Shown: positions 1,138 to 50,179 of the stretch, in pieces
How positions within the stretch are numbered: the stretch's first letter is position 1
Layout of the letters: each line of letters starts with the position of its first letter
Virus record (IMG/VR): IMGVR_UViG_3300021400_000154
Location: 32,001-96,000 of that record
Source of the DNA: a virus
Lineage: Duplodnaviria > Caudoviricetes
Reading direction: 5' to 3' (one strand)
DNA: 64,000 nucleotides
Made by a program: the position numbers and the translations under genes
Notes under the pieces: generated by a model
Told to the model about the DNA's origin: nothing
The model's database searches: none
What the model saw: only the letters and a program-made list of their open reading frames with translations

Positions 1138-2784
1138 ATGTAGAAAGCAAAGCTTGGTGTAATCACAAACTGGGATGTAATGGAAGAGCAAATCATTTTC
1201 TACAGGACGCACCTTGATGTCTTCATTGAAGATGCTTTTCCACCGATTAAACTCAGCAGGGACCAGCATGTGATCGCAAGACAGATTGGCAACTGCAGAG
1301 ACTCAGATGTTGTACAGAACCGTGGTGCTGGTAAGACATGGCTGATCGCACTCTGCTGCCATGCATTGTGTGTCCTGTACCCGCAGACATTTGTCGCGGT
1401 GTGTTCCAAGACAGCGAAACAGGCGAAGCTGGTTCTGGAAAAGCTGAAGTTCCTTGCTGAGCGCAACCCGAACATCGCGAACGAGCTCACGTCGAACAAC
1501 GCCAGGAGTCTTGTGCAGATCTCGACAGACAAGGGCAGAGCCGTATACAAGAACGGATCCAAGTTTGAATCCTTTGCGATGGAGAGTGCCCGTGGCCAGC
1601 GCGCAAAGATTATTGTGGTTGACGAGGCGCGGGACGTGGACCCTGAGATTGTGGATGCCGTTGTTTCTCCTTTAAAGAACTACCGTCGGGAGATCTCGTT
1701 CGAGAACAAGTTCCCGGATTTTGCTTCAAAGACGATTCGCATCACATCCGCATGCGAGAAAGCCCTCCCATATTATCAGGAGTTTGTGAAGACCCTGAAG
1801 AACATGGCCGCAGGGGATCAGCAGAGCTTTGCTTGCGCCTTGGATTGGAGGGCTGCTGTGGAGAACGGTGTCAACCAGGAGGAGTACTTCATCCACGAGC
1901 GCGAGAACAAACCCGATGTTGTCTTCGCCATGGAGTACGAGTCAAAGTTCGTAGGCTCCACCAATAACTCAGCCTTCCCGTATGATCTGACGCAGAAATG
2001 CCGGACGCTTCAGAAGGTTGAGCTGGAACAGCCGAAGAACTCCAAAAGCCGATATGTGATATCCCTGGACATCGCGACCAGCGATGCGGACACGGCTGAC
2101 AACTCCATTCTGAGTGTATTGAAGTTCATGGAGAAGTCAGACGGCACGTTCAACAGAAAGCTGGTCTACATGCGATCCTTCCATGGAGAATCGCTGGACG
2201 TGCTGGCAGAGGAAGTTCGTAAGCTGTATCACCTGCACTTCCCGAACGCGGAAAAGATCATATACGACGCCAGAGGTCTGGGTGACAGCCTGGACAGGTT
2301 CTTCGACAAGGAATGGGTGGACTATGCCAGCGAGAAGGAATACCCACCGCTGGTGGTTGATGACGAGCCGAACATGAATGCGGCTGCTCAGCCGATGCTG
2401 CATCCATTCCGGGCGATCCAGGCGCTGAACCAGCGGTTATACACAAACATGCGTGTGGCGCTGGAGAAACAAAGGATTGAACTTCCGATCCCCAGCAGGC
2501 TGCTTCAGTCGAAGGAGCTTGAGCGGGACGAGAAGCAAAAGATGTCCATGTATGAAAAGGCCATATATGCAGAGGCTGACGCCCTGCAGTTTGAGATGGG
2601 CAACATTGTCGCAAAGGTGTCTGCCAGCGGCAATGTATTGTACGATACTACAAACATTCGCCTGCACAAGGACCGGTACTCATCCCTGGCGATGGCGAAT
2701 GACTACATCAGCGAACTGGAGAAGGTCAACATCAAGCGTTTCAATCGTGGTGCGCAGTGTGTAGGCCTTGCCAGTGCGTTTTAA
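1138..2784 (+). CDS. terL: terminase large subunit (TAG as codon 2)
   Basis: Walker A NRGAGKT, Walker B IIVVDE, RNase H-like SLDIA...KDRYSS. The GAGGTG RBS precedes ATG 1138, followed by TAG 1141 in frame with ORF 1180 (M*KAKLGVITNWDVMEEQ). Confidence 0.9.
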
Positions 2785-2835
2785 ACATGTGATTAATAAT
2801 CAGGGTACCTTAGTTTCGAAGAGGAGGTGAGGAGC

Positions 2836-3054
2836 ATGGCGCACGCTCTTGTGAGAAAAGACGACGAACCTATCAGCCCGAGTATATGCGAATGGCTGGT
2901 CGACGACGAAAACGATGTGTCGGAGCTCCCCACCATTATTTCAAAAGGCGCGCATGGGGAACCGACGTGTTACCCTGGCTCTGTCGCGTATGTGGCGGAC
3001 CTGTAGAAGATCTGGATGCTTGGCGTTGACAGCGTCTGGCACCAGACCGTATAA
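2836..3054 (+). CDS. small virion-associated hypothetical protein (1 in-frame TAG)
   Basis: GGAGGTGAGGAG RBS; MAHALVRK...PGSVAYVADL*KIWMLGVDSVWHQTV-TAA, TAG at 3004. Confidence 0.7.
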
Positions 3055-3068
3055 AGGGGTTGGTGCGT

Positions 3069-3323
3069 ATGGATGTCGTGACGTATGCAGCAGCAGTCGG
3101 GAAAGCGAAAAGCCTGATCGACGAACACATTCACGATCTCCCCATAGCGTCCAAGAGCAAGCTTGGGGCCGTCATGATTGGGGACAGTCTGGACATCTCC
3201 GGTACAGGCAAACTGTCAGTCCTGACAGCCAGCGACGCCGAAAGCGACAACACGCTTCCGATCACATCGGCAGCGGTTTATACGGAGATCGGAAACATTA
3301 ACGCACTGTTGGCAACGATATAA
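3069..3323 (+). CDS. hypothetical virion protein
   Basis: ORF MDVVTYAAAV...EIGNINALLATI within the late operon. Confidence 0.6.
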   Translation: MDVVTYAAAVGKAKSLIDEHIHDLPIASKSKLGAVMIGDSLDISGTGKLSVLTASDAESDNTLPITSAAVYTEIGNINALLATI

Positions 3324-3365
3324 TGCTGGTGCTTATGCACAGCGATTACGAGAGGTGATGGAAGC

Positions 3366-5183
3366 ATGAGCACCGCAACAGAGATTGCGCGACTTCAAAC
3401 GGCGCGCAATACCATCCGCAACAAAATGATCGAGATTGGCGTAGGCCAATAGACAGACCATCTGGACGATCTTGCTCAAGAGATCGATAACATACAGAAC
3501 AGGGGATCTGTCAACGCAACGGTTCGCGAAGGCGAATCCTACACGATCCCTGCGGGATACCACAGTGGTTCCGGTACGGTTACCGGTATTGCAGGTGGTG
3601 GCAACTATTCGCTGCAGGCGAAGTCTGCCACACCCACAAAGCAGCAGCAGAGCGTCACGCCAGACAACGGATACTATGGCCTGTCCAGCGTGACCGTTGC
3701 TCCGATCCCTGCTGCGTACCAGGACGTTACTTCTGTGACGGCAACAGCGGCTGACGTTCTGGCGAACAAAGTGATTGTGACGTCAACAGGCGCTGTTACG
3801 GCAGGCACCATGGCGAACAACGGCGCAATCACGAGAACGCTGGACACTACAACGACCAGCACAACGATTCCTGCCGGATACCATAATGGATCCGGTACGG
3901 TCAGTATCACAACGGAAACCAAGACTGCCACGCCGACCGAGGAAACACAGGTTGTGGCTCCTACGCCGGGGAGTGTGCTGTCGTCAGTAACGGTTAATCC
4001 GATTCCGGCTAACTATATTGACACGACCGATGCAACAGCTTCATCGCTGGAGATCCTGGAAGGGTATTCCGCATATGTGAACGGTGAACTGGTGGAAGGC
4101 GAGCTTCCGATTAATCCAGCGCCAGCTGTTACTTTGACTGTCAGCAATCAGGAGTATTCGCAGGAAGAAGGATACTACGAAGGTGAAGGAATCATCAATG
4201 TGGCATCTGATTCTTCATATGAACAGAACGCCGTTGTTCCGACAACATCTCAACAGCTGATCCAGGGTGAGAACAACGCTTTCCTTACGGCTGTGTTAGT
4301 TGATGCCATCCCGAGCGAATACCAGGATGTTTCCGGCGTTACCGCTACGGCTGGCGATGTACTGGATAGCGCGTCATTTGTAGACGCGAACGGTGATACA
4401 ATAACCGGTACAATTCCTGCGAATGCGGCTGTCACCGAAACGCTGGACACGTCGAACTCGACCTATACGATTGATCAGGCGTACTACAGCGAGGGCGGGA
4501 CTGTGACCGTCAACTACGAGACGATCGACGCTTCGGACCCTGTTGTTCCGACAACGGAACCGCAAATCATCACAGGAACCAATAACGCATTTCTTGATTC
4601 TGTGTGTGTTGACGCCATACCGTCAAACTTTGTAGATACGACTGACACTACGGCTACGGCTGCGAACATTCTCGAAGGCCAAACAGCCGCTATTAGCAGT
4701 GGCGTTGTGACTGGCACAATGCCAGATTGCAGTGGAACAGATGATGAGTTCCTGTTTCCAAATGATTTTGTTCTCGAAGGGCATACCATTCCTGCTCATA
4801 CCAGCTGCACTATAGCGCAAGGTTATCATGATGGTACTGGCACTGTGCAGATATTTGTTGAAACTGCTACGGCTACTCCCACAAAGCAAGCACAGACAAT
4901 TTATCCGTCCGATGCACACACTTTGTCTTACGTAACCGTCAACCCAATTCCAGACAACTACATCGACACTACGGACGCGACGGCGACAGCAGCTCAGATT
5001 CTGACAGGAGCCTCGGCATACGTGAATGGGGTGAAGGTCACCGGCGCAATGGCGAACAACGGGAGCGTGACAACCACGATTGACGGACTGACTTCTATGA
5101 GCGCAACTATACCTGCCGGGTATACGACGGGAGGTACAGTGACCCTCACGAACGATATTGAACAGGCTCTTGCCGCAATTTAA
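3366..5183 (+). CDS. repeat-containing fibre protein (head or tail fibre; 1 in-frame TAG)
   Basis: ATG 3366 after GAGGTG RBS; TAG at 3450, continuing in frame into ORF 3690. Repeats DATATAxxILxGxxAYVNG / TIPAGYHxGSGTV / TPTxxxQ. Confidence 0.75.
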
Positions 5184-6607: not shown

Positions 6608-8266
6608 ATGGGCTTTTGGGATTTCATTGGTTCATTCAGGAGACAGCCCTCGCAGCAGGCGGAGCCTCCAGTAAAGAGAGAGAGGCCGGGAAAGGTCGCG
6701 GTCGGAGCGAAGGATGATGAGGAAAGGAAAGACATCCAGTCTTACAATAACTCAAACATCACGTTCTCCGGCGAACTTTACGGCTACGATTATGATTCGA
6801 TTCTTCGGAACAAGCAGCAGCACATATACGATCTGTATAAGCTGTAGGATTACTACACAGACGCAGATCCGCTGATTCACGGCATTGTGAAGCACGTTTA
6901 TGTGCCGTACAGCCTTGGCTCCTCCTGGACGCTTCATGGCGCTGCGGAGAAGACGATCAAGATCTATGAAGAATTCTATAAAAAGATTCGTCTCCGGGAA
7001 AAGCTCAGTTCGATTATGTTGGAATACTGGAAGTACGCGAACGTGTTTGTTTATGTGTACCACGGTGTTCCAATTACCCTGCCTCCGACAAAATGCAGGA
7101 TTGGTAACGTATCCTTCAACGGAGAGCCCGTGGTGGACTTCGACTGCCAGTCGATTTACAACGAATGGCGGCAGAAGAACTACGTCATCAAAGAGAACTG
7201 GGTGAAGGACAACGACCTGGAGACATACTTCGATGGCTTCCCGGAGGAAGTGCAGGAGGCCATCAATCGCGGAGAAATGTACGCGCAGCTGAACCCGAAG
7301 TACTGCAAGGTACTCCAGGCAGACAAGGAAACCTGGCAGCGCTATGCCATTCCGTTTATCTCCGCTTGTCTGCCAGCTCTGGCCAAGAAGGAACTCATTA
7401 ATAAGTACGAGGTAAAAATGCTGGATCTTGGCATCCATTCTTTCGTACATATCAACTATGGTGACGAGAAGAAGGGCGCCGATATGCTTCCTGAAATCAA
7501 TCAGTTAAGAGAGACCAGGAACATATTCTCCAGGGCCATGAGCAACTTCCCGCTGGCCGTCACAAACCAGCTGGCCCATGCGCATGTGGTCCAGCCAGAT
7601 CTGGATAACCTCTTCCAGTTCGACAAGTACAGAGACTGTAACAACGACATCCTGTCTGCCGGTGGCATCAGCGGTCTGCTGGTAGCCGGTCTCAGCACGG
7701 ACGGTTCAACGTTTGCTTCTGCCCAGGTGTCCATGCAGACAGCTGCGGCCAGGATCGAGTCCTGCCGGGATGAGGTCTGCGAACTGATGAATAAGATCAA
7801 TGTCTGCATCCAGGAAGAGCTGGCGAACACCCATGCCTATAACGTGAGCAAGGTTCCAGAGTTCAGCTTTATGCCGCTGGACATGGCCGGAAAGAAAGCG
7901 CTGCGCGAAGCCTGTGAGAAGCTCTGGAAGGAAGGCGTTGTCTCCACAGAGACATATATGACAGCCTTCGGATATTCCATGGAGCGCGAGACTTCCCGTC
8001 GCAAGAGCGAGGCCGGGAACGGCACCGATGAAGTGCTGGTTCCGAGGGATATTGTGAACGAGCTGAACAAGATCAAGCTCCAGCAGGAGACCTCTCCGCC
8101 TGAAGAGCCTGTTCAGCAACCTGAAGAGCCTGATCAACAGGAGACAGAAGAAACGCACATCGGCAGGCCAGAGCTTGACGACAGCGAACGGACTTCTGAC
8201 CCAGAGAACGCGATACGTTCCAAACAGCCCAAACCTTCCAACCCGGAAGGCAGTATGGGTGAGTAA
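6608..8266 (+). CDS. portal protein (1 in-frame TAG)
   Basis: ORFs 6599 and 6887 are in the same frame, joined over TAG 6845 (LYKL*DYYTDADPLIHG); ~552 aa; located upstream of protease/capsid; C-terminal GRP motif in an acidic tail. Confidence 0.8.
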
Positions 8267-35029: not shown

Positions 35030-36220
35030 ATGACTGGCGGATTTACTTTTAACGGTACAGACATTTCCATCCTCGGTCTGGAATACGTCCCAGACAATCA
35101 AAACACATACGTCTTCAGGCCATCGCAATGGAATATGAATGAGGAGACTTTCGATGCGCACGATGGCGGATATTATTACGGAACAACCGTGAAACCGAAG
35201 GACTTTTCGCTCAGGTGTATTTATGAGAGCAGACATGTGAACGACGGAATCTTGACGAGAATCTTTAATACTTTTAAGAGAGGAACAACCGGCAGACTTG
35301 TGTTCAGAAAGCGTCCATGGTGCTGGTATGTTGCGACTGTTGTTTCCGTTGATAGTTCACAGATGACCAACTACATGAACGGCCTGATCACGATTAACAT
35401 GAGAGCTTACTATCCTTTCGCGAGAACGGATAAGACATACATTACAGACGACGATGCTGCAGCAGAGCTCTATCCTGGCGGGCCAACGCTGGAGGAAGAC
35501 CTGTTGGCGAATACAGCCATGCTGAAAGGGATTGAGTGGGACCTGTCCAAGAACTTTGCTGAGACGCCGATTACATCGCAGCAAACATTCCATCTCTATA
35601 ACCCTGGCACAGAGACGGCTCCTGTTGCCATTGAGATCGCAGGCGATACGGGAACGGGCATTGTGATCACAAACTCAACCACCGGTCAGAGATGCGACAT
35701 CGCGCCTTTCGACTCTACGTCTGGTGAACATGCCGGGAAATACCTGATCGTCGACAGCTTAAGCGGCAAGGTGCTGCTGACAGATGGCTCAACGTCCACA
35801 ACATATGGTTTCCTGTACCACGACAATGGCTATATCGATTTTGCTTCCGGGTATCCCGTTATCAGAAATGTTCATGTGACAGGACAATCTGGCCAGAGTC
35901 AGCTGACCTTAAGCGAACCGATTGGAGGCAAAGAGTTGATCGGACATCAGCTCAGCATGTTTGTGTCAGGCCAATCCTGTCTGCTTGGCATTGCCGTTGT
36001 GGGGATTGCCAAGCTAAGCGTTCAAGGCACAGGAAGTATATTCAATGCAGGCATCACAAACGTTTCTGATGATGGGCTGACACTGTCATTGGACAAATCT
36101 CTTGCGTCCGATGTTGGGACCGATGCTTAGCTTGTGAAATACAATGAGATCACAATCACGCCCAACACAACCATGAATCTTACGAAGCTGATCTTCCGGT
36201 ATCGGCCAACATTTACTTAA
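35030..36220 (+). CDS. distal tail protein (Dit) (1 in-frame TAG)
   Basis: GFTFNG N-terminus, RAYYPFA and YNPGTETAP motifs; read-through of TAG 36128 gives the C-terminus LIFRYRPTFT-TAA just before the next RBS. Confidence 0.75.
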
Positions 36221-36232
36221 GGAGGTGAAGGC

Positions 36233-39200
36233 ATGCTTCGTTACAAAAGGAACCTGATTCTTGACGTGTACGATTACAGCGGCAATAAGCAATGCACGTT
36301 GTATGACAGCACATCAGATTTATCCGGCCAGGCTACAGACGTTGTCGTAACGATTGAGCGAAACGGCTGGAAGGAGCTGTCGTTCACCATCCCCACAACA
36401 TGCGAAAGCGAGAACGGCGGGCAGGAAGAAAACTTCCGACTGCAATACCTGATCGCTGACTATCGGATTCGCCTGAAGGATGATGATGGGATCGACTGGT
36501 TCCTGATCTCAGAACCAAAGATAACACATAATGTTTATTCGAAGAACGTGTCTGTGTCAGCAGGGCACATTTCTCAACTGCTGAAGACGAAGAATCTTGG
36601 TCTGGAGTTCTCCGACCATGAGGGCAATAATGTAGGAACAGCGGAAGATCTTCTGACAAAAATCCTCGATGGTACTGGATGGTCTGTCGGAAGTGTAGCC
36701 GACTTCAAAGAGAAGCGTTCCGGCGCAACCAAGATCCGCTCTATGAAAGCTTCTGCGAAGACAGGTGCTTTTAAGCTGATCTCCAACATGTGCGACCTGT
36801 TCGAGGCGAAGCCTGTTTACCATGGAGATTAGAAGACGGTAGACATTATTCCGATGAACCCGTTCTCAGAACCGGAGGATGGATCGCTGCCTGCTGTGGC
36901 GACAGGTGAATGTATTGAGCTGCACTACGGGAAAAACGTGAAGAACGTTACGAGAACGCTGAACACAGAAAACCTCGTGACGAAGCTGTATGTCTATGGC
37001 GCTTATGGTGATGCAGTGAACGGATACTGCGGTATTGACGAGTGGCATCACAAAGAATACGTGTTGACTCCTCCAGGAGCAATCCCTGCAGGTACGCAAT
37101 GCACATTCTCCGTGACGGACGATGTCTCGGGGATCACGTATACGAGATACTTTGTGGCGAAGAACGCGATCTCTGCGTCTGCAAGGCTGATATGGTAGAT
37201 GTTGGATCCTGCTTCCATGAGCTATGTATGGGATGAGGAGAACAATGCTGCCTATAGTGTGTCTGATAAGACAGATACCCATTACAACCTGATCATCAAC
37301 ACAGCAAATCCAAGCACAACTGCAGCAAAAAGGCCGCGCTTGATTCATCAATCCAGCAATACGGAATCTCGTGCAGGAAGCACTGCCGCAACAGCAGAGC
37401 ATGGCATGAAGGTAACTCTTAACTCACAAATCAAATATCAGTATATTTATTTCGGGCAGAGCACTAATGGGAAAGGAACCATGCAAGGACTGGAGCCTGG
37501 GCAAACATATACCATGTCTTTCGATGCCACGTGGAAACTTGAAAGTGGGCGGGCAACGCCTGCAACAGATAACTTTGTTGTGTTTATTAACATAGACAGA
37601 GGAACAAATACATACTCAACACTTACAAGAAAGACGATCAAAACCTTTACAACAGGAGAAGAAACATAGGACAGATGTGAATCCTTTACTTTTACTATTC
37701 CAAACGATTGCGTCAGGTGTTATATAGGAATACGTGCAGACAGTTCGACAGCCGCCAATTATGCGAAGGGTGACTTCATCGAAATCCGAAACGTCAAACT
37801 CGAAGCAGGTTCAGTTGCAACACCTTGGTGCCCATCGGAATCTGAATAGACGCTGACTGTCACGGAAACAAATGTTGTTGACAACAAGGTATCCTATCTG
37901 ATGGACTTCGATTATTACCGCAGCGTCGGGCTGTTGACGGATGAGATGCTTGACGAGGTAGGTGCTTTCCAACGCGAGATTCCTGCCCTTTTGGATACTG
38001 CGCAGACGAACGCTGCAGCGTACGCCTCCACTATCAACGATCTGTCCGAGACGATTGGAACGCCTGATTTCTGCAAGCTCTCCGCGCAGTATGATACAAG
38101 CGGAGAATACCTTGGGTTAAACTTGAACACAGGAACAGGCGGTTATCCGAAAGGTGTTATCTACAGAACGGACTATGCGCTGAAGGAATCGAAACAGTTC
38201 CAGTGGAGAACCACGAGTAATATATACCCGAACGGAGACCCGTATGAAAACTATGCAGCGGTGGTTTACATCGTTCACACACATACGGATCCTTGCACAT
38301 ACGACATCGGATATCTTCGTGCGGTTAACGATCATTTGGAACCAACAGAAGATGATCAGAAAGCACCGACAAAGCTGTCCTTGTGGCTCAAGAGTGCAAA
38401 CTTCGATGATTCTCACTCAAACACAGATCACATCTATCTGTTCAGGCAAAACAGCATCATCGGCGACCTTGGCGCGATGATGCTACAGGACGAGACGGCG
38501 GAAGATACGCTTAAAGACAGCGTAAAGAACCAAATCAAGGGTGATCGCCTCGTGTATTATACGGATCAGGCGATCACAAGAGAAAATCCTGGATTTAACT
38601 TCGTTGGATATGCCTGGGCGTGGAGGTATTACAAAGATAACTCGCAGCCATCTGAAATGTACTTCTGCGATCTTGATGCCGGAGACGTAAGCTGGCACAG
38701 GACTTTCGTTACAAAGAATCCTCCAGCGAACACATTGGGTTCTAACCAGGATTACGCCTATTGCTGGAAAGAAGGAACATTATACCGGAAGAATGGCAGC
38801 GCCTGGGAAAAACAAACAAATAAGTCTACCGTCGACGACAACTTCGGCAGGATGGTTTCCAGTTTCGGCACCGTGTACAACAGCTGCGTTGATCGCGACA
38901 TGATCAGAAACGGACACTATGAGTATTATGCAGTGGATGCCCAGGAAAACCTGCCGGTTGGCAACTACGCTATCGCAGACCCGTTTGGAGTCTACCATGC
39001 GTTTACAACGAAGGCACAAACCGATCAAGGAAAACGGATATCTTTCGACTGGACGCACGGTTGGGTGGCGATATTTAACAGCGGTACAGACCCGTAGAGT
39101 GTCGACATCACGACTGTGATTGATGACGCTCTGACCAGTTCCCAGTACCGGTATGATTCTGTATTCGACAGCGGCGAGGATGTGCTAAACGATGCGATCT

Positions 39201-41641
39201 GGGAAAGCGGCTCGATTACTGCAGGCTCTGATCCCAAAGCAGGAAGCCCGTACATCATTATGGGCGGTGGCGAAGTCATTGATGCTTCCTAGCAACGGAC
39301 TGGATTCAGAGGCATTTATCCGAAGATTATCTATCGCCTGACCCGCCCTGGAAATCTCGAATGCGTCGTTCACTTCTATACAGCAGAGCACGGGTATCTT
39401 GGTTGCAGAACACTCAGCGCCGGTTCTTCCAGCGACAGTACTGTAACGGAAATCACAGCGCCTGCGTACGCAAGGTTTGTTCGCGTTGTAACATCCGCAG
39501 AAGCGAGCACCGAGTCTTTCTCCATGCAGTCAAAGTATGCCGATCAGTCCTTTGTTGTGCAGGAAGAGGAATACAGAAACCTCGGCATTGGCACAGGATA
39601 TGGAAAGCTAAAAGGTATCATCCCGATGATTAAAAAGTTCCAGGAGCTATCGGACCTGGCATATCTGGTCCAACTGGACGCGGTAAAGACAGCACAGGCG
39701 GCAGTAAAGGAAGCAGAGAATCATCTGATTGATGTGCTTGGCGATATTTATCGGGAAGGCTATTGGCAGAAGGCCGACTATGTGGACGGCGACGAAGAGA
39801 AACTGTATGACGATGGAATGGAAAACCTGAAGAAGATCGCTAAACCAGATACTACTTATAACGTTCAGTATCTGGATCTCTATGGGGCGAACACAGCAGA
39901 GCACGAGTATGCAGAAAACGGCATTGTTGCTAAGACGTACTGGCCTGATCTAAGCTCGAACTATGCGGTTCATCTTGTGGACCCGGACATCGGCATCAGC
40001 CAATGGGCGTTCATTGACAAGATTTAGAAATGCTATGACATGCCGTGGAAAACAACCATCAGCATCAATACGAACCTGACCACAATACAGCAGCATACGT
40101 TTACGGATGTCATGACGCACATCGCAGATGTCGCATCCCAAGTCAAAGGGAAAATGGAGCTGTATGACAGAGCCAAAGCATTCGACGAAGATGGAAAGAT
40201 GTCGACCTCTACGTTGCAGGGCGTTATTGATGCGAATACGCTGCTGATCACAGGCGGCGCTTCTACATGGTATACAGACGACAAAGGCAACATGGTCTTT
40301 GTCTCTGCCGATGAGAAGAGCGCAATGACGTTAACTGGCAACGGGTTTGCAATTGCGAACCAGAAAGACGAATGGGGCGAATGGATCTGGAGAACCTTCG
40401 GTACTGGCTCGGGGTTTACCGCTGATCTGATTACAGCCGGTACACTTCAGGCAGACAGAATACGGGCAGGTTCTATTACGCCTGCGAAAGCTTCGCCAGA
40501 CTTCGGAACCTACATCGACCTGACAGAAAACGGCACGATCATCGAGAATGCCAATGCGGCGAAATCATATACAGATGGCAAGACACAGGAGACAATGCAA
40601 GAGGTTACGAACGTGACGCAGAAACTGAATGCTGTGAACGGAAGGTTCGACAACTATGTTGAGCAAACGGTTTACAACGCAGACAAAGATGTCGTCGACC
40701 GCAGAGTGTCCTCCGTGGAGCAGACAGCGAATGGCGTAAAGACAACGGTGGACGATTACATCAACGAAATGGGAACCTGTGTAGAGATTACCACGAACGG
40801 TCTCGAACTGCGTCAACGGCAGAACTCGGAGTACTACGCGATGCTGACGGCAAACTCGATTGACTTTAAGAACAGGTCGAATGGTGATTCTGTTGCTTCG
40901 TTTGGTGCCGGTGGTGCTTACATTGACAAGGTACGATCCAGGAAAGTTCTGTCGGTCGGTACTGAGGAGAACGGCTGGTATGACATGACAGCGCTTCCCG
41001 GTGGCGTGGCAGACAAGTGGCGTGACGGTACTGCTTCTGTGCTGAAGCCGATCATCATTAAACAGCCGGAAGATTACTATGCGGATTTCCAGGCTGGATC
41101 ACATCCTATCACAGGGACTACCAACTGGCCAGAAGCATTTACTTTTACCGTGGAAGCTGAAAATGTTGCTTCGTATCAGTGGCAATACAAAACTGCGTTT
41201 AACGCAACCTGGATTGACGGTTCCGCTGAAGGCAATAAAACCAACACGCTTACGTCTACTTTAAACGCCCAGCGTCTAAACTTCATATACAGATGTCATA
41301 TCATAGGCAACGATGGAACTGAACTGTATACGAATGAAGTGCAACCCAGAATGAATAATGCTCCTGTTATTCTCGCTCAGCCAAAGCCAGCGTATCGGGA
41401 AGTAGCAATTGGAGATGTCGTGCAACAAAGATTCTATGTTGTCGGAGCAACATCTTATCAATGGCAATACAGAACAAGCGCAACTCCAACTGGCAAGTTC
41501 AAAAATGTAAGCGCAAACTCGAACGCTCCTACTCGCGACGCAACTTCGGCAACTGCCTTGAAGCAATACTATCGTTGCGTTGTAACAGGGCCAACCGGAG
41601 CTATTGCCGTGACTGACGAATTTGTCATCGAATGGAAGTGA
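36233..41641 (+). CDS. baseplate hub/tail spike (Tal-like, ~1802 aa, 7 in-frame TAGs)
   Basis: Six ORF fragments in one frame, joined over TAGs at 36830, 37196, 37667, 37847, 39095, 39290 and 40025. Prophage tail endopeptidase-like N-terminus (YGKNVKNVTRTLNTENLVTKLYVYG), CBM-like insert (NVKLEAGSVATPW), FTADLITAGTL spike motif, two C-terminal Ig-like repeats (SYQWQY). Confidence 0.8.
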
Positions 41642-41651
41642 GGTGAAACGA

Positions 41652-43568
41652 ATGCCTAATCTTACTTTTGCTGGCAGTCCTGCCAGTATAACCTTTGCTC
41701 AAGGAAACACTGCAAAAATCCAAAGTGAAGTATCCTGGAATATTACCTCTTATACTGCACAATATGAAATCGAGTCGTTCAGCATTCGTTTCAAAAGGCA
41801 GACTTCCGGTTATGGTGTTATTGCCATAAAAAACGGCCACGATTTCTGTTCTGCTGTCAGTTACAGCAACAAGCCTTCTACGGAAGACTATATTTTTGTG
41901 ACCGTGCCGCAGAGCTACTGGGAAAACCGTACCAGCGACTCGTTCGCTTTGAGCTTCTACAGCCCGATGGCGCAGAGCGTAAGACAAATCTACAGAGAAA
42001 TCAGCCTGTACATTGTGCTTAAGGCGAAAGCGTTCCCTTAGACGGCCACTGTAGACACGGTGAATGTGGGCGCTGAGCAGACAGTTACGCTCTCCAACGA
42101 CTCGCTCGGTTCCTTGTCGCATAAAGTCACTTGGGCGTATGGTAGTGTAACAGGCACAGTCAACGCAAGCACCGGCAAGCCGACAGTATCCTGGGCGGTA
42201 CCCTCCGACAAAGTGGAGACCGTCTGCGCGTTAAGTCCGGACAGCAGAACGGTCAGTGGTACGGTTACCGTTAACACATATCTGCCCGGCGATGGTGATA
42301 GTGTGCTGATTGGTACTACGGCGACAACCGCAAGGCTGACGATCCCGGATGATACGGATACGAAGCCGACGATTTCAGGCACGATCACTGCTGCGAAATC
42401 AAGCGATGCGCCAAATACGAATACTCTGCTTCAGCGGTTTACGGACGTAACACTGACGAACATCTCTGCAACGGCGAGGTATGGTGCATCAGTCCCGTCC
42501 TCGGCCTACAGGCTTGTGGTGAGAAACAACGGATCGGAAGTGTTCAGTACTGACATTACATCCGGCACAACCGTGTTTGACCATGTGGCATGGCCAGCTG
42601 GAACAAACACCGTAGCGGTGGTGGTCACGGACTCCCGTGGCATATCCAATGAAAAGACCTTGGACGTGGCGCTGACGGCTTATACGCTTCCAGCGATTAC
42701 AGACATTGATGTCGCCCGGTACAGCCTGTCGAAAGATGCGCTGGATGACGAGGGCGATGCTTTTCAGGTAACCGTCTCTGCCGTGTTTGACACCAATGCC
42801 GGTGCTGGCGCAACGCCCTATGCGGCTGTTGTTAAACAGGGCAGTACGCAAATCGCAACAGCCACAAACTCCAACAATGTTTTCGTTGTCGGAGACACCT
42901 CTCACACAACGAGTCCGGAGGAGACCTACTCAATCGAGGTCACCGTGACAGACGGGTACGGTAAGCAGACAACCCAGACGACAGAGATCGGAACCTCGGT
43001 TTATACGATCTATCGACTGGCTGGCGGTAAAGGTGTTTCGTTTGGTAAGGCTGCGGACAAGTATGGCGTGGAAGTGAACGAGGACTGGCCGTTCTATACG
43101 CACGGACAAGAGATTCAACGAATGCTCCTGGATTATGCTCATCCGGTCGGGAGTGTATTGGAAACCCTGGATGAGGAGTTTGACCCGAATGAACAGTGGC
43201 CATGGACAAAATGGGGAAAACTGGAAGACGTGTTCCTTCTGGCATCGGGAACGAGAAGCGTACTCGATGAGGGAGGGTCTGAGACGGCATCCGTTGGTAC
43301 GCAAGTTACGTTTACGCTTGAGCCACAGAACTTGCCCAAATATTCTGTGCTTGCGGCAACGACCAGTGCGTACCCGGACGTTGGGTATAGTACATCGAAT
43401 CTTCCGGCAGGATTTCCAACGTATAGTTCGAGAGCGCATAGCCAAGCGGCTGGCCATGGATATCTGGCAACCACAGCTGACGCGGAACCTGTCACCGCAA
43501 CGGCCAGCGGTAGTGTCGCTACCATGCCGCCCTACCTCACTGTTAACATTTGGGTACGATCACGATAA
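41652..43568 (+). CDS. baseplate/tail protein (DUF859-like with gp10-like C-terminus; 1 in-frame TAG)
   Basis: ORFs joined over TAG 42039 (KAFP*TATVDT); VTDSRG and GKGVSFGK motifs; C-terminal HPVGSV...DPN...MPPYLTVNIWVR. Confidence 0.7.
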
Positions 43569-43582: not shown

Positions 43583-46500
43583 ATGGCTTACCAAACGCAA
43601 ACCTTTACGGACAATGAAACCGTATTGACTGCGGCGATGATGGATCATATCGAGGCCGGTATCGTCGCAAACGACCAGCGGGTAACCAGTATTCTTGGTG
43701 AATACAATGAGTATGACCCGGCGACTGAGTATGATGAAGGTTCGGTCGTCGTACACGGCAACAAGATCTATGAGTGCGTCGAGGATGGAACCACCGGAGC
43801 CTGGGATGATACGAAATGGAGCGAAGTCCCTTTGCTGGATATAGCTCGTGAGGGAAGAGACACAGCACGTACAGACAGCGAGTATCTGGAAACGCTGGAC
43901 ACAGAGGTTGGCGTCCTCGCGCCTAAGACAGATGTTCTGACCTATTACAATCAAGGAACGATCAGCTCGACAACAGGAGGAACCTCCAGTTCCACCACCC
44001 GGATTCGCTCCGGGTTTATTTTCATCCAGGTGGACTCCATGGTTGTGCTGACGCCTGTTGAAGGATTTGGATGTAATGGACGACTGTACGCGACGACCGA
44101 TACGAGTACGTTTGTTGAGACGTTTGGCGACGACAGTTGGTACGGTAGTGAGACACGCACAAAGATTGATGGAGGCCAGTACATTCGGATTGTCGCGAGA
44201 AGGCTGGAAGACACGGAGATTACGCCTGAGTTCGGCACAGAAAACATCAAGATCACCGCGATCACAGAGCCTGAGAAACAGCCTACGGCAGACGATACGA
44301 TTGCTTTGAATCTGACAGAAACAACTGCATCGTATATGACCGGTAATGTCGGAGAACAGATAAACTACAGTAGTTCGTCTTCGACGACCGTGTTTAAGAA
44401 CGCGGCACAGGTGAAGGCAGGAAACCGATATGCCATGTTGGTGACATACGGGGACACGATTAGCTCTGACAACGTAAGAACATCCTACATCGTCAGCCAA
44501 GGCGGCGTGGTGTTGCAGAAAGTGAACAACTGCGTTGCTGCATCCACCACTGTTAAGAGCGAGTTTGTGGCTGTAGCAGACGGGTTCCTCTATCCGAACG
44601 TAGACAACAATTATACAAGTATTGTGCTGAAGGGTGGGCCACTGTATGATGTGTCGCATGGCCATCATAATGAGAACTTCAACCTGATTGCTCCACTTTG
44701 TAACGTGCATGGATCAGCCAATATCTATGGGCGGCGCATCGATGTGGACGGATGTCGCGTGAAAAAGGAACGGCTCTCCAGCGACCAATCGACCGTGACG
44801 CTCTGCGTTTCTCTGTTTGGCGACCAGTTCCACTATTGGAACGCGGGTTACTCTATCAGTGATGATGCTATCATCGGGCAAGGTCTACAGGACAGCGATT
44901 TCGTGCCAATCCCCAATTGGCTAAAAGTAGCAGATGTGAAAGATTACATCTTCCATGCTGTCGTAACTTGGCGGAGCGCTGGTCCAGGAACGAACGGAAG
45001 ACTTCTGTTCTTCACGAAAGACTCTGAAGGAACAATTACTTACAGTGCTCGATTGAATGTTTCAAGTTATACAGATGAATATAGAGGTAACCTTACTTAC
45101 CTTCTTGCGCCTGGGTTTCTGGCAACTGCGATAGCCAATGACAATATTGCTTTCGTCTATTATAATCCGAACTCCCAGACTATTACTGATCAGGAGTTTT
45201 ACTTCAGTATCGAAAGAGCAGTTGCTCCAACGGAATATCTTGCACCTCCGGAAAGTTACACCGCTGAAAACGCGCATGAGGTTGGTGATTTGATTACCTA
45301 TGGCTCAAGGCTCTGCAAGGTAACGAGTCCTATTGCAACAGGCGAAACAACAAGCGCCAAAATTGAGGACACTTCTGTCGCCGCAGAACTGGCCAGCAGA
45401 GATAATGCGATTGTGACAGACAAGACCGCGATTCTTGACGGTAGCGGGTATGTCGACTGGGGCTGGGTTCCCGGAGAGCAGACCGTAACCGTGGCTGGCG
45501 TGACTGTGACCCGGAACGGGAACAGGGTCAAGCTGAACGGCGTGTCTACCGGGAACTTCTTCGTTCGCATGGTGGGCAATCTGCTGGCACAGACATCCTC
45601 CCCAACTGCCGCGCAGGTGATTGCCGGATGCCATACCACCGCGGGGCATGAGTACCAGTATCAGCTTCGGCTGACGGGCGGTTCGGCGGCGCTTAACACG
45701 GCACACTCGGTTAGTTTATCGCTGGCCGTGTCTTCGTACAAGGCAGGATCAACCAATTCCTTCGCAAATCACCATGCCCAGCGCATCGAAGAAGAGGGCT
45801 GGGCCCTGCGGGACTTCACCAGCGATGATGGCGCAGATTTGTCCGTGTGGCTGTGGTGCGCGACAGGGACTACCTTCACGAACGCAGAGTACGAACTGAC
45901 CCTGTTGGATGTTACAGCGGCAGAACAGACCGACCATGCCACCACCATGGCGAGAGCCGCTCTTGCGACAAAGCCTGGTGCGATCCCGGTTGAGGCATAC
46001 GGCAAGCCGGGGTCTATCATGACGAACAACAAGGTTCGGGTTTCCAAGGGCTGGGGTAACCGGGTTCGCGTAGACGCGATCGGCAACACAAGCACATATG
46101 CGATGGTGTCCATTCAAAATGGCGTGAAATTCCTGAACAATTGGACTCTGAGCAACGACATGGTGGAATTGGATCTCGAACCGTTCCATGCCTATAAATT
46201 GACGGCACGGTACATCTCCGGCACGGTGGCACAGGTAGGCAATGCTGACTCGGTTTTGGTCTGGATGAGGAAGAGAGAAAGCGAATCCTCCCCACAAGCA
46301 CCTAACTTTACCGAACACATGATTGCCGACATTAACAACGGAATTACTGAATGGAACTCAATTTGTTGCTTCTCCGATCCGTGCAAGATCGGATTCGGCT
46401 TCTACTTCCGTGGTCTTACCGCTGACGCGCTGATCATTGAGTTCCTGTGCGAGGAGATTCCTGACATTTCCAGCATCGCACCGGTTGACTCCACAACTGC

Positions 46501-47341
46501 CGCCAGCAACCACGCCGTCGGCGACCTGCTGACCAATAAGGGCCAGCTTTACAAGGCCACACAGGCAATTGCAACAGGGGAAATCATCACACCTGGAACG
46601 AACGTAGCGTCCACCACTGTCGCCGCAGAACTGGCCAGCAGAGATGCCGCGATTGCGGCAGAGGTTGAGGCGAGGGAAAACCAGGACACGCTTATTTCAG
46701 ACACGCTGCAAAGGCTTTCGTTGACCCCGTTTGAGAAAAGGCTGTTCACGACATGTGAGCGAAACATCGTAGTTAATACGGGTGTAAACCACCGTATTGC
46801 AAATGTTGTGTACAACTCAATAAACAGTTTAGGCGAAGATCGCTCAGGATCAACATACCGTACAGTCTGGCTGACGGGCGACGATCCCGGCCCAAACGGG
46901 CAAATAACCTCGATGATCTCATTTCGAAGGAGTCGATTTGCCCATTTTACTGTTTCCAATACAGAACAAAAAAAGTTAATCATATCTGCGCATCGTGTTG
47001 GGCTTACTGACTCAAGTTTTTCAAATGCATTCAGTAATCCACCTGAGTTTTTTGTACTTACTTATGATCCGGCAACAGATCTTGTCTATTGGTTCGTCGC
47101 TGCGCCGCCTGCGCTTGAAGTCAGTGATAATGAATACGGCTTTTCACAAAGCCTGGCATATGGAAACATCGCTATTGCAGTTCAGTTCAGAAGACCAACG
47201 CAAACTATAGACTGGAGATTCAACGTCAATGTTGCGAGAAAAGACTTGTCGCCTTACATTGAAGATGTTCCAGAAAAAGAGTTTTCAAGCTCCGGAAAGT
47301 ATATCACACAAGATGAATTCTCGCCGGAAACCACGACCTGA
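43583..47341 (+). CDS. tail fibre/receptor-binding protein
   Basis: ~1250 aa; VLTAAMMDHIEAGI N-terminus; two HxVGDLxTxxxxLxK...VAAELASRD repeats; mosaic GC content. Confidence 0.7.
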   Translation: MAYQTQTFTDNETVLTAAMMDHIEAGIVANDQRVTSILGEYNEYDPATEYDEGSVVVHGNKIYECVEDGTTGAWDDTKWSEVPLLDIAREGRDTARTDSEYLETLDTEVGVLAPKTDVLTYYNQGTISSTTGGTSSSTTRIRSGFIFIQVDSMVVLTPVEGFGCNGRLYATTDTSTFVETFGDDSWYGSETRTKIDGGQYIRIVARRLEDTEITPEFGTENIKITAITEPEKQPTADDTIALNLTETTASYMTGNVGEQINYSSSSSTTVFKNAAQVKAGNRYAMLVTYGDTISSDNVRTSYIVSQGGVVLQKVNNCVAASTTVKSEFVAVADGFLYPNVDNNYTSIVLKGGPLYDVSHGHHNENFNLIAPLCNVHGSANIYGRRIDVDGCRVKKERLSSDQSTVTLCVSLFGDQFHYWNAGYSISDDAIIGQGLQDSDFVPIPNWLKVADVKDYIFHAVVTWRSAGPGTNGRLLFFTKDSEGTITYSARLNVSSYTDEYRGNLTYLLAPGFLATAIANDNIAFVYYNPNSQTITDQEFYFSIERAVAPTEYLAPPESYTAENAHEVGDLITYGSRLCKVTSPIATGETTSAKIEDTSVAAELASRDNAIVTDKTAILDGSGYVDWGWVPGEQTVTVAGVTVTRNGNRVKLNGVSTGNFFVRMVGNLLAQTSSPTAAQVIAGCHTTAGHEYQYQLRLTGGSAALNTAHSVSLSLAVSSYKAGSTNSFANHHAQRIEEEGWALRDFTSDDGADLSVWLWCATGTTFTNAEYELTLLDVTAAEQTDHATTMARAALATKPGAIPVEAYGKPGSIMTNNKVRVSKGWGNRVRVDAIGNTSTYAMVSIQNGVKFLNNWTLSNDMVELDLEPFHAYKLTARYISGTVAQVGNADSVLVWMRKRESESSPQAPNFTEHMIADINNGITEWNSICCFSDPCKIGFGFYFRGLTADALIIEFLCEEIPDISSIAPVDSTTAASNHAVGDLLTNKGQLYKATQAIATGEIITPGTNVASTTVAAELASRDAAIAAEVEARENQDTLISDTLQRLSLTPFEKRLFTTCERNIVVNTGVNHRIANVVYNSINSLGEDRSGSTYRTVWLTGDDPGPNGQITSMISFRRSRFAHFTVSNTEQKKLIISAHRVGLTDSSFSNAFSNPPEFFVLTYDPATDLVYWFVAAPPALEVSDNEYGFSQSLAYGNIAIAVQFRRPTQTIDWRFNVNVARKDLSPYIEDVPEKEFSSSGKYITQDEFSPETTT

Positions 47342-47362
47342 CAACGAAAGGAGTAATGACTT

Positions 47363-47629
47363 ATGTATCAGTATTACATCATCGAGATCACCCGTAACCA
47401 GCAGGGCGCGTATGCCCACAATGTCTACTGGGTATATGACGCGAACCAGGACACTGCTCGTCTGAAGGGCGAGGCCAAGTGGCATGAACTGCTGGCTGCT
47501 GCGGCTGTCAGCACCCATCTCACCCACAGCGTGACTCTGCTCTCTGACGAGGGCGTGACCCTGCTTCAGAAGGTGTACAAGCACCCCTACATTGAGACTC
47601 CAGAACCCGAGCAGGAGGAAGCCGAGTAA
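47363..47629 (+). CDS. hypothetical protein (fibre assembly?)
   Basis: AAGGAG RBS; 88 aa; followed by a hairpin at 47641-47685. Confidence 0.6.
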   Translation: MYQYYIIEITRNQQGAYAHNVYWVYDANQDTARLKGEAKWHELLAAAAVSTHLTHSVTLLSDEGVTLLQKVYKHPYIETPEPEQEEAE

Positions 47630-47702
47630 CAACTTTACGGATTCTCTCCGTCAGATGGCATAAAACACTGTCTGGCGGAGAGAATCGCTGTATTCAGAGG
47701 TG

Positions 47703-48212
47703 ATGCGAATGAACGGAAAAACAACCCACGTCCTCTTCCATGGAGAGCGTGTTACCGAGTCCCCTCAGCTTTATCAGTATGACTATGGCCAGAGCCTGGT
47801 GTTCGACGACATCACCTTGCCGGAAATCTACGAGGTGCTGTTCAGCAACGGCATTACGCAGGAGGCCAAGACGGTGCTAGGCAATGCGGATGGCGTCCAG
47901 ATCCCGGACGAATATCTGACCACAGGCAAGAATGTGCTGGCGTGGATCTTCCTCCACGACGGCGATGATGACGGCGAGACCGAGTATGTGATCCGGATCC
48001 CGATCCGTCCCCGCTCTGGGCTCTCAGACGATGAGATCACCGAGGAAGAGCACAGCATTGTGTCAGACCTGATCGCACTGGTGGACAGCATGAAGGAAAC
48101 GCTCTCTGCTTATGAGACGAGGATTCACACTCTGGAGGAAAGGATTCCGGCACTTGGCGGCTGGAAAAACAACGGAGGTGAGACCGATGATTCAACCGCA
48201 GGATCTGATTGA
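47703..48212 (+). CDS. BppU-like upper baseplate domain protein
   Basis: LYQYDYGQSL...VQIPDEYL..G...AWIFL pattern. Confidence 0.5.
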   Translation: MRMNGKTTHVLFHGERVTESPQLYQYDYGQSLVFDDITLPEIYEVLFSNGITQEAKTVLGNADGVQIPDEYLTTGKNVLAWIFLHDGDDDGETEYVIRIPIRPRSGLSDDEITEEEHSIVSDLIALVDSMKETLSAYETRIHTLEERIPALGGWKNNGGETDDSTAGSD

Positions 48213-49005
48213 ACTGTTCCAGAAGGCGTATACGGAGCGCTGGGGCTACATCTGGGGAACCGCAGGAGAGACCTGGACAGAAGAGAAACAGGCTGACGCG
48301 GTCAAGCAATACCATCTGGCTGAAGCGAACAAAGGCAACGTCAGCCGCTGGAAGATGACGGCGCAGTACGGTGCCAAGTGGATCAACCGCAGAGTCGCTG
48401 ACTGCTCCGGCCTCTTCTCCTGGGCCTTCAAACAGCTGAAGGGCTATATGCCCCACGGCAGCAACAGCATGTTTAAACAATACACGACAGCCAACGGCAA
48501 GATCGTCGGTGGTCGCAAGGAAAACGGAGAAGCTCTGGCTCCGGCAACAGCAGTGTTCAAGTACAACGACAAGGACGGCTACTACCATGTAGGCCTGTGC
48601 ATCGACGGCACCAAGGTGATCGAAGCACAAGGTACACAGGCCGGTGTGACGATCTCCGACGTGAAGAAGTGGCACTACTGGGGCGAACTCAAGGGCGTGA
48701 ACTATAAAACGGAGGTGAAGCCTATGGAGTATCAGAAGGCGGTTGTCATCGCGGATGGCGGTGTAAACTTCAGGTCTGGCAAATCCACCAGCGCCACCAA
48801 GATCGACGTGATCCCCAAGGGTGCAGAGATCGAGGCGGCTGATGCTGGTAATGGCTGGAGCCAGGTCAAGTACAACGGTCGGACAGGCTACTGCATGTCC
48901 AAGTATATCAAGTATGGAGAAGCGGCTTCCGACAACGAGGCCGTGAACATCATCAACAACATCATCAAGGAGCTTGGGCAGCTGAAGGAAATGCTCGAGC
49001 CGTAA
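48187..49005 (+). CDS. endolysin (NlpC/P60-type peptidase + SH3b)
   Basis: WGYIWG, ADCSGL catalytic Cys, YHVGLCI His, IEAQG; C-terminal VNFRSG..SH3-like GW..VKY.G.TGY. Confidence 0.85.
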   Translation: MIQPQDLIELFQKAYTERWGYIWGTAGETWTEEKQADAVKQYHLAEANKGNVSRWKMTAQYGAKWINRRVADCSGLFSWAFKQLKGYMPHGSNSMFKQYTTANGKIVGGRKENGEALAPATAVFKYNDKDGYYHVGLCIDGTKVIEAQGTQAGVTISDVKKWHYWGELKGVNYKTEVKPMEYQKAVVIADGGVNFRSGKSTSATKIDVIPKGAEIEAADAGNGWSQVKYNGRTGYCMSKYIKYGEAASDNEAVNIINNIIKELGQLKEMLEP

Positions 49006-49020
49006 CAGGAGGTGGATCCC

Positions 49021-49419
49021 ATGGAGCAGATCAGCGGATGGCTTTTCTCGGTAAGGGATCTGCTGACAGCGTTGGTCGCTGTGGTGACGGCTGTCGGTGT
49101 GATCTATGGATGGGTCATCAAACCCATCAAACGTCAACAGGAACTCGACAAACTGCAATCCGAAAAAATCGACAAACTTGTGGTCGCTGTGGATGAACTG
49201 AAGAAACAGGTCGATGCGAATCAAGCTGAGTACGTTCGAGACAGACTTCAGACCATGCATGAAAAATATTGTAACGAGCTTGGATGGGCTTCAGCAGAAG
49301 AGAAGCGGCGGATCGTTGACTGGTACGAAGACTACCGGAGGCGCGGCTACAACCATCTGGCAGAAACTTATGCAGAAGATATTGTGAAGCTTCCGGAGCG
49401 GCCTCCTGTGAAGGAGTGA
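49021..49419 (+). CDS. membrane-anchored lysis-region protein (holin-like)
   Basis: N-terminal TM helix, coiled coil, YxxxGYN motif. Confidence 0.55.
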   Translation: MEQISGWLFSVRDLLTALVAVVTAVGVIYGWVIKPIKRQQELDKLQSEKIDKLVVAVDELKKQVDANQAEYVRDRLQTMHEKYCNELGWASAEEKRRIVDWYEDYRRRGYNHLAETYAEDIVKLPERPPVKE

Positions 49420-49424
49420 TCCGC

Positions 49425-49715
49425 ATGTACGACAAGGACTATATCCAGTATTCCAAACGATTCACAAAGTGGGGCATGATCATGATCGGTGTGGTCATGA
49501 TTCTGTGCCTTGGGATTATCGCGTTCTGCAACTTGCCACAGTACTCCATCCAGAGCATTGTCTCGCTGTACTCCGCTTTTGCGACCGTGCTGGGCATCAC
49601 GATTGGTGCCTATCAGGGGAACTCGTCTCTGGAAAAATGGACGAGGGCGAAGTATCAGTATGAGGAACTGATGCAGAGCGAGCCGATTGATTCGGACGAA
49701 CCGTCAAACGGTTGA
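49425..49715 (+). CDS. two-TM membrane protein (holin-like)
   Basis: Two hydrophobic segments; lies within the lysis cluster. Confidence 0.5.
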   Translation: MYDKDYIQYSKRFTKWGMIMIGVVMILCLGIIAFCNLPQYSIQSIVSLYSAFATVLGITIGAYQGNSSLEKWTRAKYQYEELMQSEPIDSDEPSNG

Positions 49716-49861
49716 TTTTCTCCTGCTTTAGACTTATAAACATATAGAGTTTATGCGGGTTTCAGAGGGCCCGAATATCGCAGATGGGTATTTATTCCTG
49801 AAACCCATAAAACACAGTTTCAAGGCAGGAGATTCTAATAAGTTATTAGGAGGCGTTATCA

Positions 49862-50179
49862 ATGGATTGGACAACCATTATTGTGCTGGCGATTGGCCTG
49901 GTGTTTACTGTTCTGACCGGCGTGGCTGTGAAGCATGTGATTCCTTGGCTGAAGGAACGCCAGCTGTACGATGCTGCCATGATTGCCGTGAACGCAGCTG
50001 AGGCTGTGTATGGTCGTTATCATGGCGAGGAGAAGCTGGCTGCTGCGCTGAAGTAGCTGGCCGACAAGGGCTTCGATGTTAAGTCCGATGTCGTGATCGA
50101 GGCGCTGAACGCTGCCTGGAAAGAGATGGACAGGGCGATGATTGACGCTGGAGAGAAAGAGATCGTGAAGGCGGAGTAA
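49862..50179 (+). CDS. phage holin, LL-H family-like (1 in-frame TAG)
   Basis: N-terminal TM, IPWLK, AVNAAEAVYG...GEEKL; read-through of TAG 50054 gives 105 aa ending in TAA. Confidence 0.75.

Follow-up and report, generated by a model that had tools for sequence, protein, structure and literature searches.

The window analyzed here is a stretch of 64,000 nucleotides, bases 32,001-96,000 of one 110,614-bp virus record of IMG/VR (IMGVR_UViG_3300021400_000154), in which genes for virion and lysis proteins contain in-frame TAG codons and the opposite strand encodes a tRNA with the anticodon CUA, a predicted suppressor of these codons. The termini of the record overlap by 107 bp, it is classified as having direct terminal repeats with a completeness of 100%, and it is circular. 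In the following, the phage under study is termed G000 and other G numbers designate the records of relatives. Coding-potential profiles and calls of open reading frames (ORFs) revealed two gene blocks. The plus-strand block for virion formation and lysis extends from window position -338 to 50,179 and comprises 34 genes, and the remaining about 98 ORFs are located on the minus strand round the rest of the circle. The plus block starts with an HNH-like gene and a tRNA-Met gene, followed by the genes for TerL, the portal, a YonB-family capsid protein, tail proteins, a tape-measure-type protein, Dit, a YomG/Prophage_tail-type Tal, a Gp10_C baseplate protein, a 1,252-aa fibre-like protein and an NlpC/P60-SH3 endolysin, and ends with three small membrane proteins, one of which is a Holin_LLH holin. 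The minus block encodes a DnaB-primase, Pol III alpha, a Sak annealing protein, a PD-(D/E)XK nuclease, NrdD, dUTPase, ClpP, PhoH, two amidoligase paralogues, a YonO/RdRP-like polymerase, a tRNA array with a ROOL RNA, five DUF551 paralogues and, as final gene, a tyrosine integrase. Most of the tail and neck genes and the small minus-strand genes could not be named with Pfam and PHROGs, and for this reason no repressor was identified; a search of the whole genome for an HTH_3 repressor and a serine recombinase gave nothing above the cut-off. Among annotated TerL proteins, the closest comes from Clostridium phage c-st (31% identity). G000 is a 110-kb temperate, SPbeta-like phage, probably of gut or rumen Clostridia, with a host that is assigned only indirectly.

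When translated with the standard code, the late block splits into TAG-ended fragments that all lie in one frame, whereas with TAG as a sense codon it consists of 34 genes ending with TAA or TGA. The preliminary description of this DNA had placed a TAG at codon 2 of the terminase gene, three within the first 54 codons of the capsid gene and further ones in the portal and holin genes, and all of these were found at the positions listed in Table 1. The N-terminal 14 residues of TerL are homologous in 10 of 10 relatives, so the start at 1138, and with it the TAG at codon 2, can be regarded as real; this ATG is also preceded by the Shine-Dalgarno motif GAGGTG. In TerL, portal, capsid protein, Tal and holin, alignments with relatives continue across the TAG sites, and since the N-termini of TerL and capsid protein and the C-terminus of the holin align, these TAGs lie inside the genes and do not stem from miscalled starts or stops. 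The holin has a homologue of full length in G005, and a relative that is about 85% identical in this region has kept the TAG at codon 65 and gained another one in the second lysis membrane protein. Early TAGs had also been reported for genes labelled fibre, neck, tube and RuvC. Here the codons hold, but the labels RuvC, neck and fibre do not: a search with PF02075 for RuvC was empty, and Pfam and PHROGs were silent on the genes so named. At codon 53 of the virion structural protein, all eight relatives with a sense codon there have serine. Pseudogenisation or assembly error was rejected as a cause, as the interruptions are exclusively TAG and are kept in relatives that are 85-97% identical.

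Table 1. Genes and other features of the window discussed in the text, with in-frame TAG codons.
Feature	Position	Strand	Remarks
TerL	1138..2784	+	PHROG phrog_2; ATG 1138; TAG at codon 2 (1141)
Portal	6608..8266	+	phrog_2739; TAG at codon 80 (6845); S, A or V in this column in relatives
Major capsid protein, YonB family PF27364	10312..11325	+	TAG at codons 27, 41, 54 (10390, 10432, 10471)
Virion/tail gene	12706-13440	+	TAG at codon 22
Virion/tail gene	14229-15143	+	TAG at codons 86 and 209
Virion structural protein	15225-15992	+	TAG at codon 53
BspA-type leucine-rich repeat (LRR) moron	17628..18455	-	Pfam LRR_5; no TAG
Tape-measure-type giant protein, 5,479 aa	18530..34969	+	PhageMin_Tail; 57 in-frame TAGs
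Dit, Tal/YomG-like protein (1,802 aa), baseplate Gp10_C protein	35030..43568	+	1, 7 and 1 TAGs, respectively
1,252-aa fibre-like protein, small genes, NlpC/P60-SH3 endolysin (48187-49005)	43583..49005	+	Zero TAGs
Holin (Holin_LLH)	49862..50179	+	TAG at codon 65 of 105 (50054); one N-terminal transmembrane helix
attP core, 46 nt	50370..50415	+	Between holin and integrase; copies 3' part of tRNA-Cys(GCA), anticodon stem to U73
Tyrosine integrase	50522-51493	-	PF00589, 104.9 bits; no TAG
Small genes including 5 DUF551 paralogues	51565..58996	-	Readable with standard code; stops nearly all TGA/TAA
Suppressor tRNA(CUA)	59017..59103	-	Class II, long variable arm, G73, anticodon loop CUCUAAA
Remaining tRNA array (Ser-UGA, Pro, Thr, Gly, Gln, Ile-UAU)	59105..62076	-

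The gene with by far the most TAGs is that of the tape-measure-type protein, a 16.4-kb frame with 57 TAGs and not a single TAA or TGA. Seven standard-code relatives, which lack a tRNA(CUA), have an intact gene for 5,006-6,308 aa at this position, and the frame is therefore a single gene. Its TAGs are evenly distributed, with the earliest at codons 22 and 56; in this gene TAG accounts for 15% of serine decoding, a significant enrichment that no other gene shows. The G+C content of this gene is 40-45% compared to about 52% elsewhere, and its first approximately 2,200 residues have no match in the relatives; yet genes for 5,000-6,300 aa are the norm in this family. In the genes downstream, the first TAG is located at codon 200 of Tal and at codon 130 of the baseplate protein. 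With respect to the upstream end of the operon, window 1043-1143 (plus strand) spans a tRNA-Met(CAU) gene and, 24 nt after it, the first codons of TerL; this tRNA is also present in G006, but not in G007 or G010. The opening ATG-TAG of TerL corresponds to a minimal start-stop ORF under the standard code.

The bias of TAG toward certain gene classes, which the preliminary description had proposed to test statistically, was highly significant. The late genes contain 80 in-frame TAGs in 16,048 codons and all other genes at most 12 (2 of them verified) in 16,344 codons (Fisher p=6e-14). When the tape measure and Tal were left out, 16 TAGs in 8,767 late codons remained, and the difference was still significant with the liberal (p=0.017) and the verified count (p=3e-6) of the non-late TAGs. 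TAG occurs in 15 of the 34 late genes and in 1-9 of the 98 others. Base composition is not responsible for this excess, because TAG is equally frequent out of frame in both sets (4.5 and 2.1 per 1,000 codons in late genes, 4.5 and 2.0 in the others). If TAG had the share of serine decoding in the non-late genes that it has in the late genes without the tape measure, the non-late genes should contain about 27 TAGs. Most of the 12 candidates fall in unverified N- or C-terminal extensions, and PhoH is the only non-late gene with homology-verified TAGs. The earlier claims that the small early genes are nearly free of TAG and that integrase and LRR moron contain none are thus in line with the data; replication genes other than PhoH are free of TAG, too. 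As a terminator TAG is rare across the genome and absent from the late genes. At least one early gene, that for the DnaB-primase, ends with a TAG, which is aligned with the TAA stop of a relative.

The second bias concerns the position within the gene. Of 16 late-gene TAGs, nine occur within the initial quarter of the gene (p=0.0075), and for the 23 TAGs of G000 outside the giant gene this fraction is 57%, compared to 24% of the serine codons (p=8e-4). In G007 the first gene quarter holds 39 of 71 TAGs (p=7e-8), and 32 of the 59 homology-verified sites. Tested against a synonymous-codon null, the 5' bias had p=1.5e-8 in G007 and p=0.006 in G010, the latter against serine codons. The same genes are affected at different codons: TAGs early in the capsid gene are found at codons 27, 35, 40, 41, 48 and 54 across the lineages, and that of TerL is at codon 2 in G000, 61 in G010 and 39 and 69 in G007. 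The base 3' of TAG showed no bias suggestive of a tuning of read-through. Upstream, a C directly before an in-frame TAG was observed 5 times in G000 compared to 22 times expected and is strongly depleted in G007, too, which is consistent with a generic avoidance of CTAG. A role of TAG density in setting protein stoichiometry was rejected, since the many-copy capsid protein and the few-copy tape measure are similarly TAG-dense.

The suppressor tRNA (58.4 bits with the Rfam tRNA model) is encoded on the strand opposite to the late operon, as described before, in the tRNA array about 50 kb from the start of the minus block, and is the only component of a code change in the genome. The preliminary description had found neither a release factor nor a synthetase gene in the window; with searches for RF-1, PCRF, the class-II aminoacyl-tRNA synthetase core and glutaminyl-tRNA synthetase (GlnRS), this absence of domains of release factors 1 and 2 (RF1, RF2), of enzymes of the seryl-tRNA synthetase (SerRS) type and of GlnRS extends to the complete genome. 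The single match to PCRF was below the threshold and lies within the tape-measure coiled coil. About 1 kb from the suppressor gene, between tRNA-Thr and tRNA-Gly, a full-length ROOL RNA (277.9 bits) is located at window 60103-60668 (minus strand); the tRNA array of G007 has drum and skipping-rope RNAs instead.

The tRNA has features that point to serine, namely G73, a long variable arm and an acceptor stem like that of tRNA-Ser. When the alignment columns at TAG sites were scored with BLOSUM against standard-code relatives, serine obtained 1.67 and glutamine 0.30 in G000 (9 columns), and 2.84 and 0.39, respectively, in G010 (7 columns). Genetic code 15, in which TAG specifies glutamine, does not agree with these scores or with the class II body of the tRNA. 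Judging from tRNA and columns together, TAG is most likely a sense codon for serine that is decoded by the phage's own tRNA(CUA).

To place the recoding within the phage family, we scanned IMG/VR for related TerL sequences, which gave 16 loci, and took ten records whole. Seven of these (G001-G005, G008, G009) use the standard code, and even in these relatives only 3-6% of the genes end with TAG. G000, G006 (TerL 97% identical), G010 and contigs L080-L086 are of the serine type, with orthologous suppressors that share identical D-arms, G73 and the tRNA-Ser-like acceptor stem; the TAG at capsid codon 27 is kept in all serine-type relatives. The suppressor of G007 (92 kb; L059-L063) differs, having a tRNA-Leu body and A73-CCA. 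In the column test for this phage leucine scored 2.91; of 34 well-aligned TAG columns, 25 have leucine as the majority residue and in 15 it is invariant. The portal tree places the serine lineage as a clade, sister to standard-code phages, with full support, and the capsid tree shows the same sister grouping with weaker support (88/86). Because G007 falls outside the serine lineage and its standard-code sister group in both trees, TAG must have been captured twice. Individual sites turn over rapidly: of 12 sites of G000 in the stretch that it shares with G010, only about 2 hold a TAG in both phages. The only TAG-free region of G007 is a 31-kb early block, which holds the tRNA array with the suppressor. 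In G010 a group I intron (71.8 bits; L070:11026-12005) is located right after the capsid gene, and the ORF 3' of it contains an in-frame TAG; its counterpart in related contigs has a faint match to NUMOD3, a domain of the homing-endonuclease type.

The lysogeny module lies between the late operon and the small minus-strand genes. Upstream of both TAG-free genes for which sigma70 promoters had been claimed, sigma-70-like motifs are present: TTTACA-17-TGnTATAAT at 51562-51534 for the integrase and TTGACA-17-TATATA, recognized by eye, for the LRR gene. The 46-nt attP core is identical to part of the tRNA-Cys gene of three metagenome-assembled genomes (MAGs), from an Oscillospiraceae member, a Christensenellales-type organism and an unclassified member of the Clostridia. 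In relative L088, whose integrase is 68% identical, the integrase gene lies directly beside a complete tRNA-Cys, which indicates that this contig represents the integrated state. Taken together, these features show that the phage is temperate and integrates at a tRNA gene. For the host code, which was to be determined via the tRNA-Cys attachment site, the evidence is indirect, with hosts inferred from the 46-nt tRNA-Cys identity: all three candidate MAGs possess an intact RF1 (prfA above the curated cut-off) plus a second release-factor match. At the candidate host loci, 5 of 49 long ORFs have a TAG stop. When 185,579 species genomes were scanned with TerL, no integrated relative was obtained, and an exact attL junction (5' half of the host tRNA-Cys, core and phage arm) was not present in metagenome contigs. 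Adjoining the integrase gene, five successive small genes (window 51875-54240, minus strand) each encode one DUF551 domain and form a tandem array of paralogues. The minus strand also contains two large polymerase-like genes, L071:4793-7627 and L072:6464-9961. The former has a Pfam RdRP match right at the cut-off and fits a YonO-like enzyme, and the latter may begin at a candidate start 92 codons upstream, crossing two TAGs.

The preliminary description had interpreted the TAG codons as a lysogeny and late-gene lock that is opened by expression of the tRNA operon. The data support this interpretation in part. The preconditions of such a lock were found, i.e., TAGs in late genes, a suppressor encoded outside of the operon, a temperate phage and candidate hosts with RF1. 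TAG, most likely read as serine, is confined nearly completely to the plus-strand virion and lysis operon and favours the first approximately 100 codons. In a cell with standard code and RF1, ribosomes would then terminate almost immediately in the genes for TerL, portal and capsid protein, in the tube-region genes and in those for tape measure and Tal, and also within the holin gene. Virions and timed lysis would require two inputs, late mRNA and a sufficient amount of suppressor tRNA, and late in infection read-through would presumably be near-complete. Integrase, LRR moron, polymerases and replication genes can be read with either code and have TGA or TAA stops; they would be functional before and after the switch. 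Such a gate or leak filter would be superimposed on transcriptional control, and if the suppressor is encoded inside the gated operon it could still act as a feed-forward leak filter. On balance we slightly favour a translational AND-gate or leak filter of this kind over virion and holin production, in which the timing of the suppressor and its silence in lysogens are presumed. The lock as such is plausible, and we infer that gating was selected for.

Several observations weigh against this interpretation. The part of the lock that assigned the switch to an early-operon tRNA is not general in the family, because most serine-type relatives hold the suppressor gene in the late operon: in G010 and six further contigs it is located on the late strand between the portal gene and the late gene that follows, a position that speaks more for a feed-forward leak filter than for a switch in an early operon. 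G007 recodes also replication genes and one YonO-like polymerase, and in G000 itself PhoH, a gene of the replication block (L073:2492-3337, minus strand, window 66492-67337), has TAGs at codons 5 and 64. At the second of these sites two relatives have Trp (TGG). Of the late genes, 19 of 34 are free of TAG, among them those for the fibre-like protein of 1,252 aa and for the endolysin. TerL might be initiated without a TAG from an in-frame ATG, its codon 15, and the TAG of the holin gene comes after the only transmembrane helix, which stays intact. Sigma-70-like sites near the tRNA array were at or below chance, as they were in the late operon. Production of one protein with 57 TAGs calls for about 99% read-through per site, and an anti-RF1 function was not found in the phage. 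The serine assignment has exceptions as well: several recent TAGs replaced CAG at glutamine columns, and the column of capsid codon 54 is invariant glutamine. Since GlnRS is present in all three candidate hosts, some glutamine may be inserted at TAG.

The distribution of the TAG codons could also have arisen without selection for a lock. TAG might drift into genes that are translated while the suppressor tRNA is abundant and be purged from those translated first, and the 5' bias could mean that an early failure of read-through is the cheapest and the least poisoning for assembly. We regard this passive origin as a real but less likely alternative. It would account well for the fast turnover of sites, for the different extent of recoding in sister phages (late genes only in G000, late and replication genes in G007), for the suppressor in the late operon of most serine-type relatives and for the many late genes without TAG, that of the endolysin among them. 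The family-wide avoidance of TAG stops, which includes the standard-code members, likewise fits the drift model of Borges et al. What this origin explains less well is that strong 5' placement recurs at differing codons of the same essential genes in the independent serine and leucine lineages. Moreover, the 57 evenly distributed TAGs of the tape measure argue that read-through seldom fails late in infection, and because they are tolerated there, abort cost alone would be a weak force.

The two remaining explanations concern the translation of other genomes in the cell. A suppressor produced late might derange translation of the host or a competitor, or the recoding might deny the late genes to satellites, to co-infecting phages or to premature expression forced by the host, with lysogeny being secondary. 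The TAG stops at the candidate host loci, set against phage genes ending with TGA or TAA, would be compatible with such a conflict, and a block of host-forced premature lysis is discussed by Borges et al.; as nothing in the genome points to a competitor or satellite, and as 5' placement and restriction to virion genes are explained no better than by gating, we consider it improbable. If the host itself read TAG as sense or supplied a suppressor, there would be no conflict of codes and no lock. The assignment of the host solely by 46 nt of tRNA-Cys leaves some room for this, but it is very hard to reconcile with the intact prfA in three of three MAGs sharing the 3' end of tRNA-Cys, with the avoidance of in-frame TAG by about 98 non-late genes in spite of equal out-of-frame TAG, with the early DnaB-primase stop TAG aligned with the TAA of a relative, and with the fact that the phage has its own suppressor.

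The gating interpretation can be extended to the whole family, although we advance this wider version only tentatively. TAG would have been captured at least twice within one SPbeta-like family of Clostridia phages, as serine and as leucine, by class-II tRNAs whose synthetases ignore the anticodon. Selection that in both lineages favours TAG within the initial 50-100 codons of essential late genes would represent a deliberate abort-early checkpoint whatever the amino acid, with the suppressor encoded either in a separate array (G000, G007) or, in feed-forward manner, in the late operon (G010 group). With standard-code sisters and serine and leucine lineages, and with roughly 490 relatives that have a YonB capsid protein, the family offers natural comparisons for the gating idea: recoding affects virion genes only or replication genes as well, and the suppressor gene either is or is not part of the operon that would be gated. 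A new quantitative signature is that TAG lies toward the 5' end of genes in each of three genomes, which argues for selection on the position of abort. The results also matter for annotation, as code 15 yields wrong residues in such phages and standard-code gene callers truncate or shatter the late genes. In public protein sets, capsid proteins of the serine-type clade are N-terminally truncated to 274-281 aa (P0008, P0013, P0015, P0024, P0032, P0077, P0080, P0107), since standard-code callers place the start beyond the final TAG.

A tRNA-Ser with the anticodon CUA is known from E. coli supD (serU), which is still charged because SerRS ignores the anticodon. supD is a mutant host allele causing partial suppression, whereas the suppressor of G000 is a phage gene serving 80 sense codons. 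In phages, a lock between lysis and lysogeny by stop codon recoding is already the hypothesis of Borges et al. (bioRxiv 10.1101/2021.08.26.457843), who observed only recoding of TAG to glutamine and of TGA to tryptophan; our literature search found no report of TAG read as serine or leucine in phages. Their phages 'Garnet' and 'Topaz' are prophages at tRNA genes of standard-code hosts (Oscillospiraceae in the case of Topaz) and resemble G000 in that the recoded stop codon is used in structural and lysis genes, avoided in the integrase gene and, in the case of TAG, depleted as terminator; a lysis-lysogeny lock was proposed for them. They differ in having about 25 kb and TAG as glutamine, compared to 110 kb, an SPbeta-like genome and TAG as serine in G000. 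Some recoded phages described there possess genes for release factors or synthetases, in contrast to G000, and a recoded intron endonuclease is echoed by the intron ORF of G010. The 5' position bias was not analyzed in that study. The virulent code-15 phages (crAss-like, Lak, phAss-1; PMC9523058, PMC10607447) share with G000 their own tRNA(CUA) and the prevalence of TAG in late genes, but they read TAG as glutamine and infect Bacteroidota.

SPbeta (PMC5467207; bioRxiv 10.1101/2021.11.22.469490), like G000 a large temperate phage of Bacillota, has in common with it the YonB capsid protein (PF27364), YomG_N on Tal, a faint YomX_C match, a giant tape measure and a YonO-like two-barrel RNA polymerase with a Pfam RdRP match. 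This likeness is restricted to the level of family profiles; the tyrosine integrase of G000, which targets tRNA-Cys, distinguishes it from SPbeta, and SPbeta was not among the recoded phages in the literature searched. A parallel to the proposed mechanism is a synthetic feed-forward 'leak dampener' (PMC7969014), in which an mRNA and a co-regulated suppressor tRNA are both needed and leakiness is removed; that circuit was engineered in E. coli, whereas the arrangement in G000 is natural and known from its sequence. Compared to the lock proposed so far, the new aspects are the serine meaning of TAG, the independent capture by a leucine suppressor together with recoded replication genes, and the suppressor inside the late operon of most serine-type relatives.

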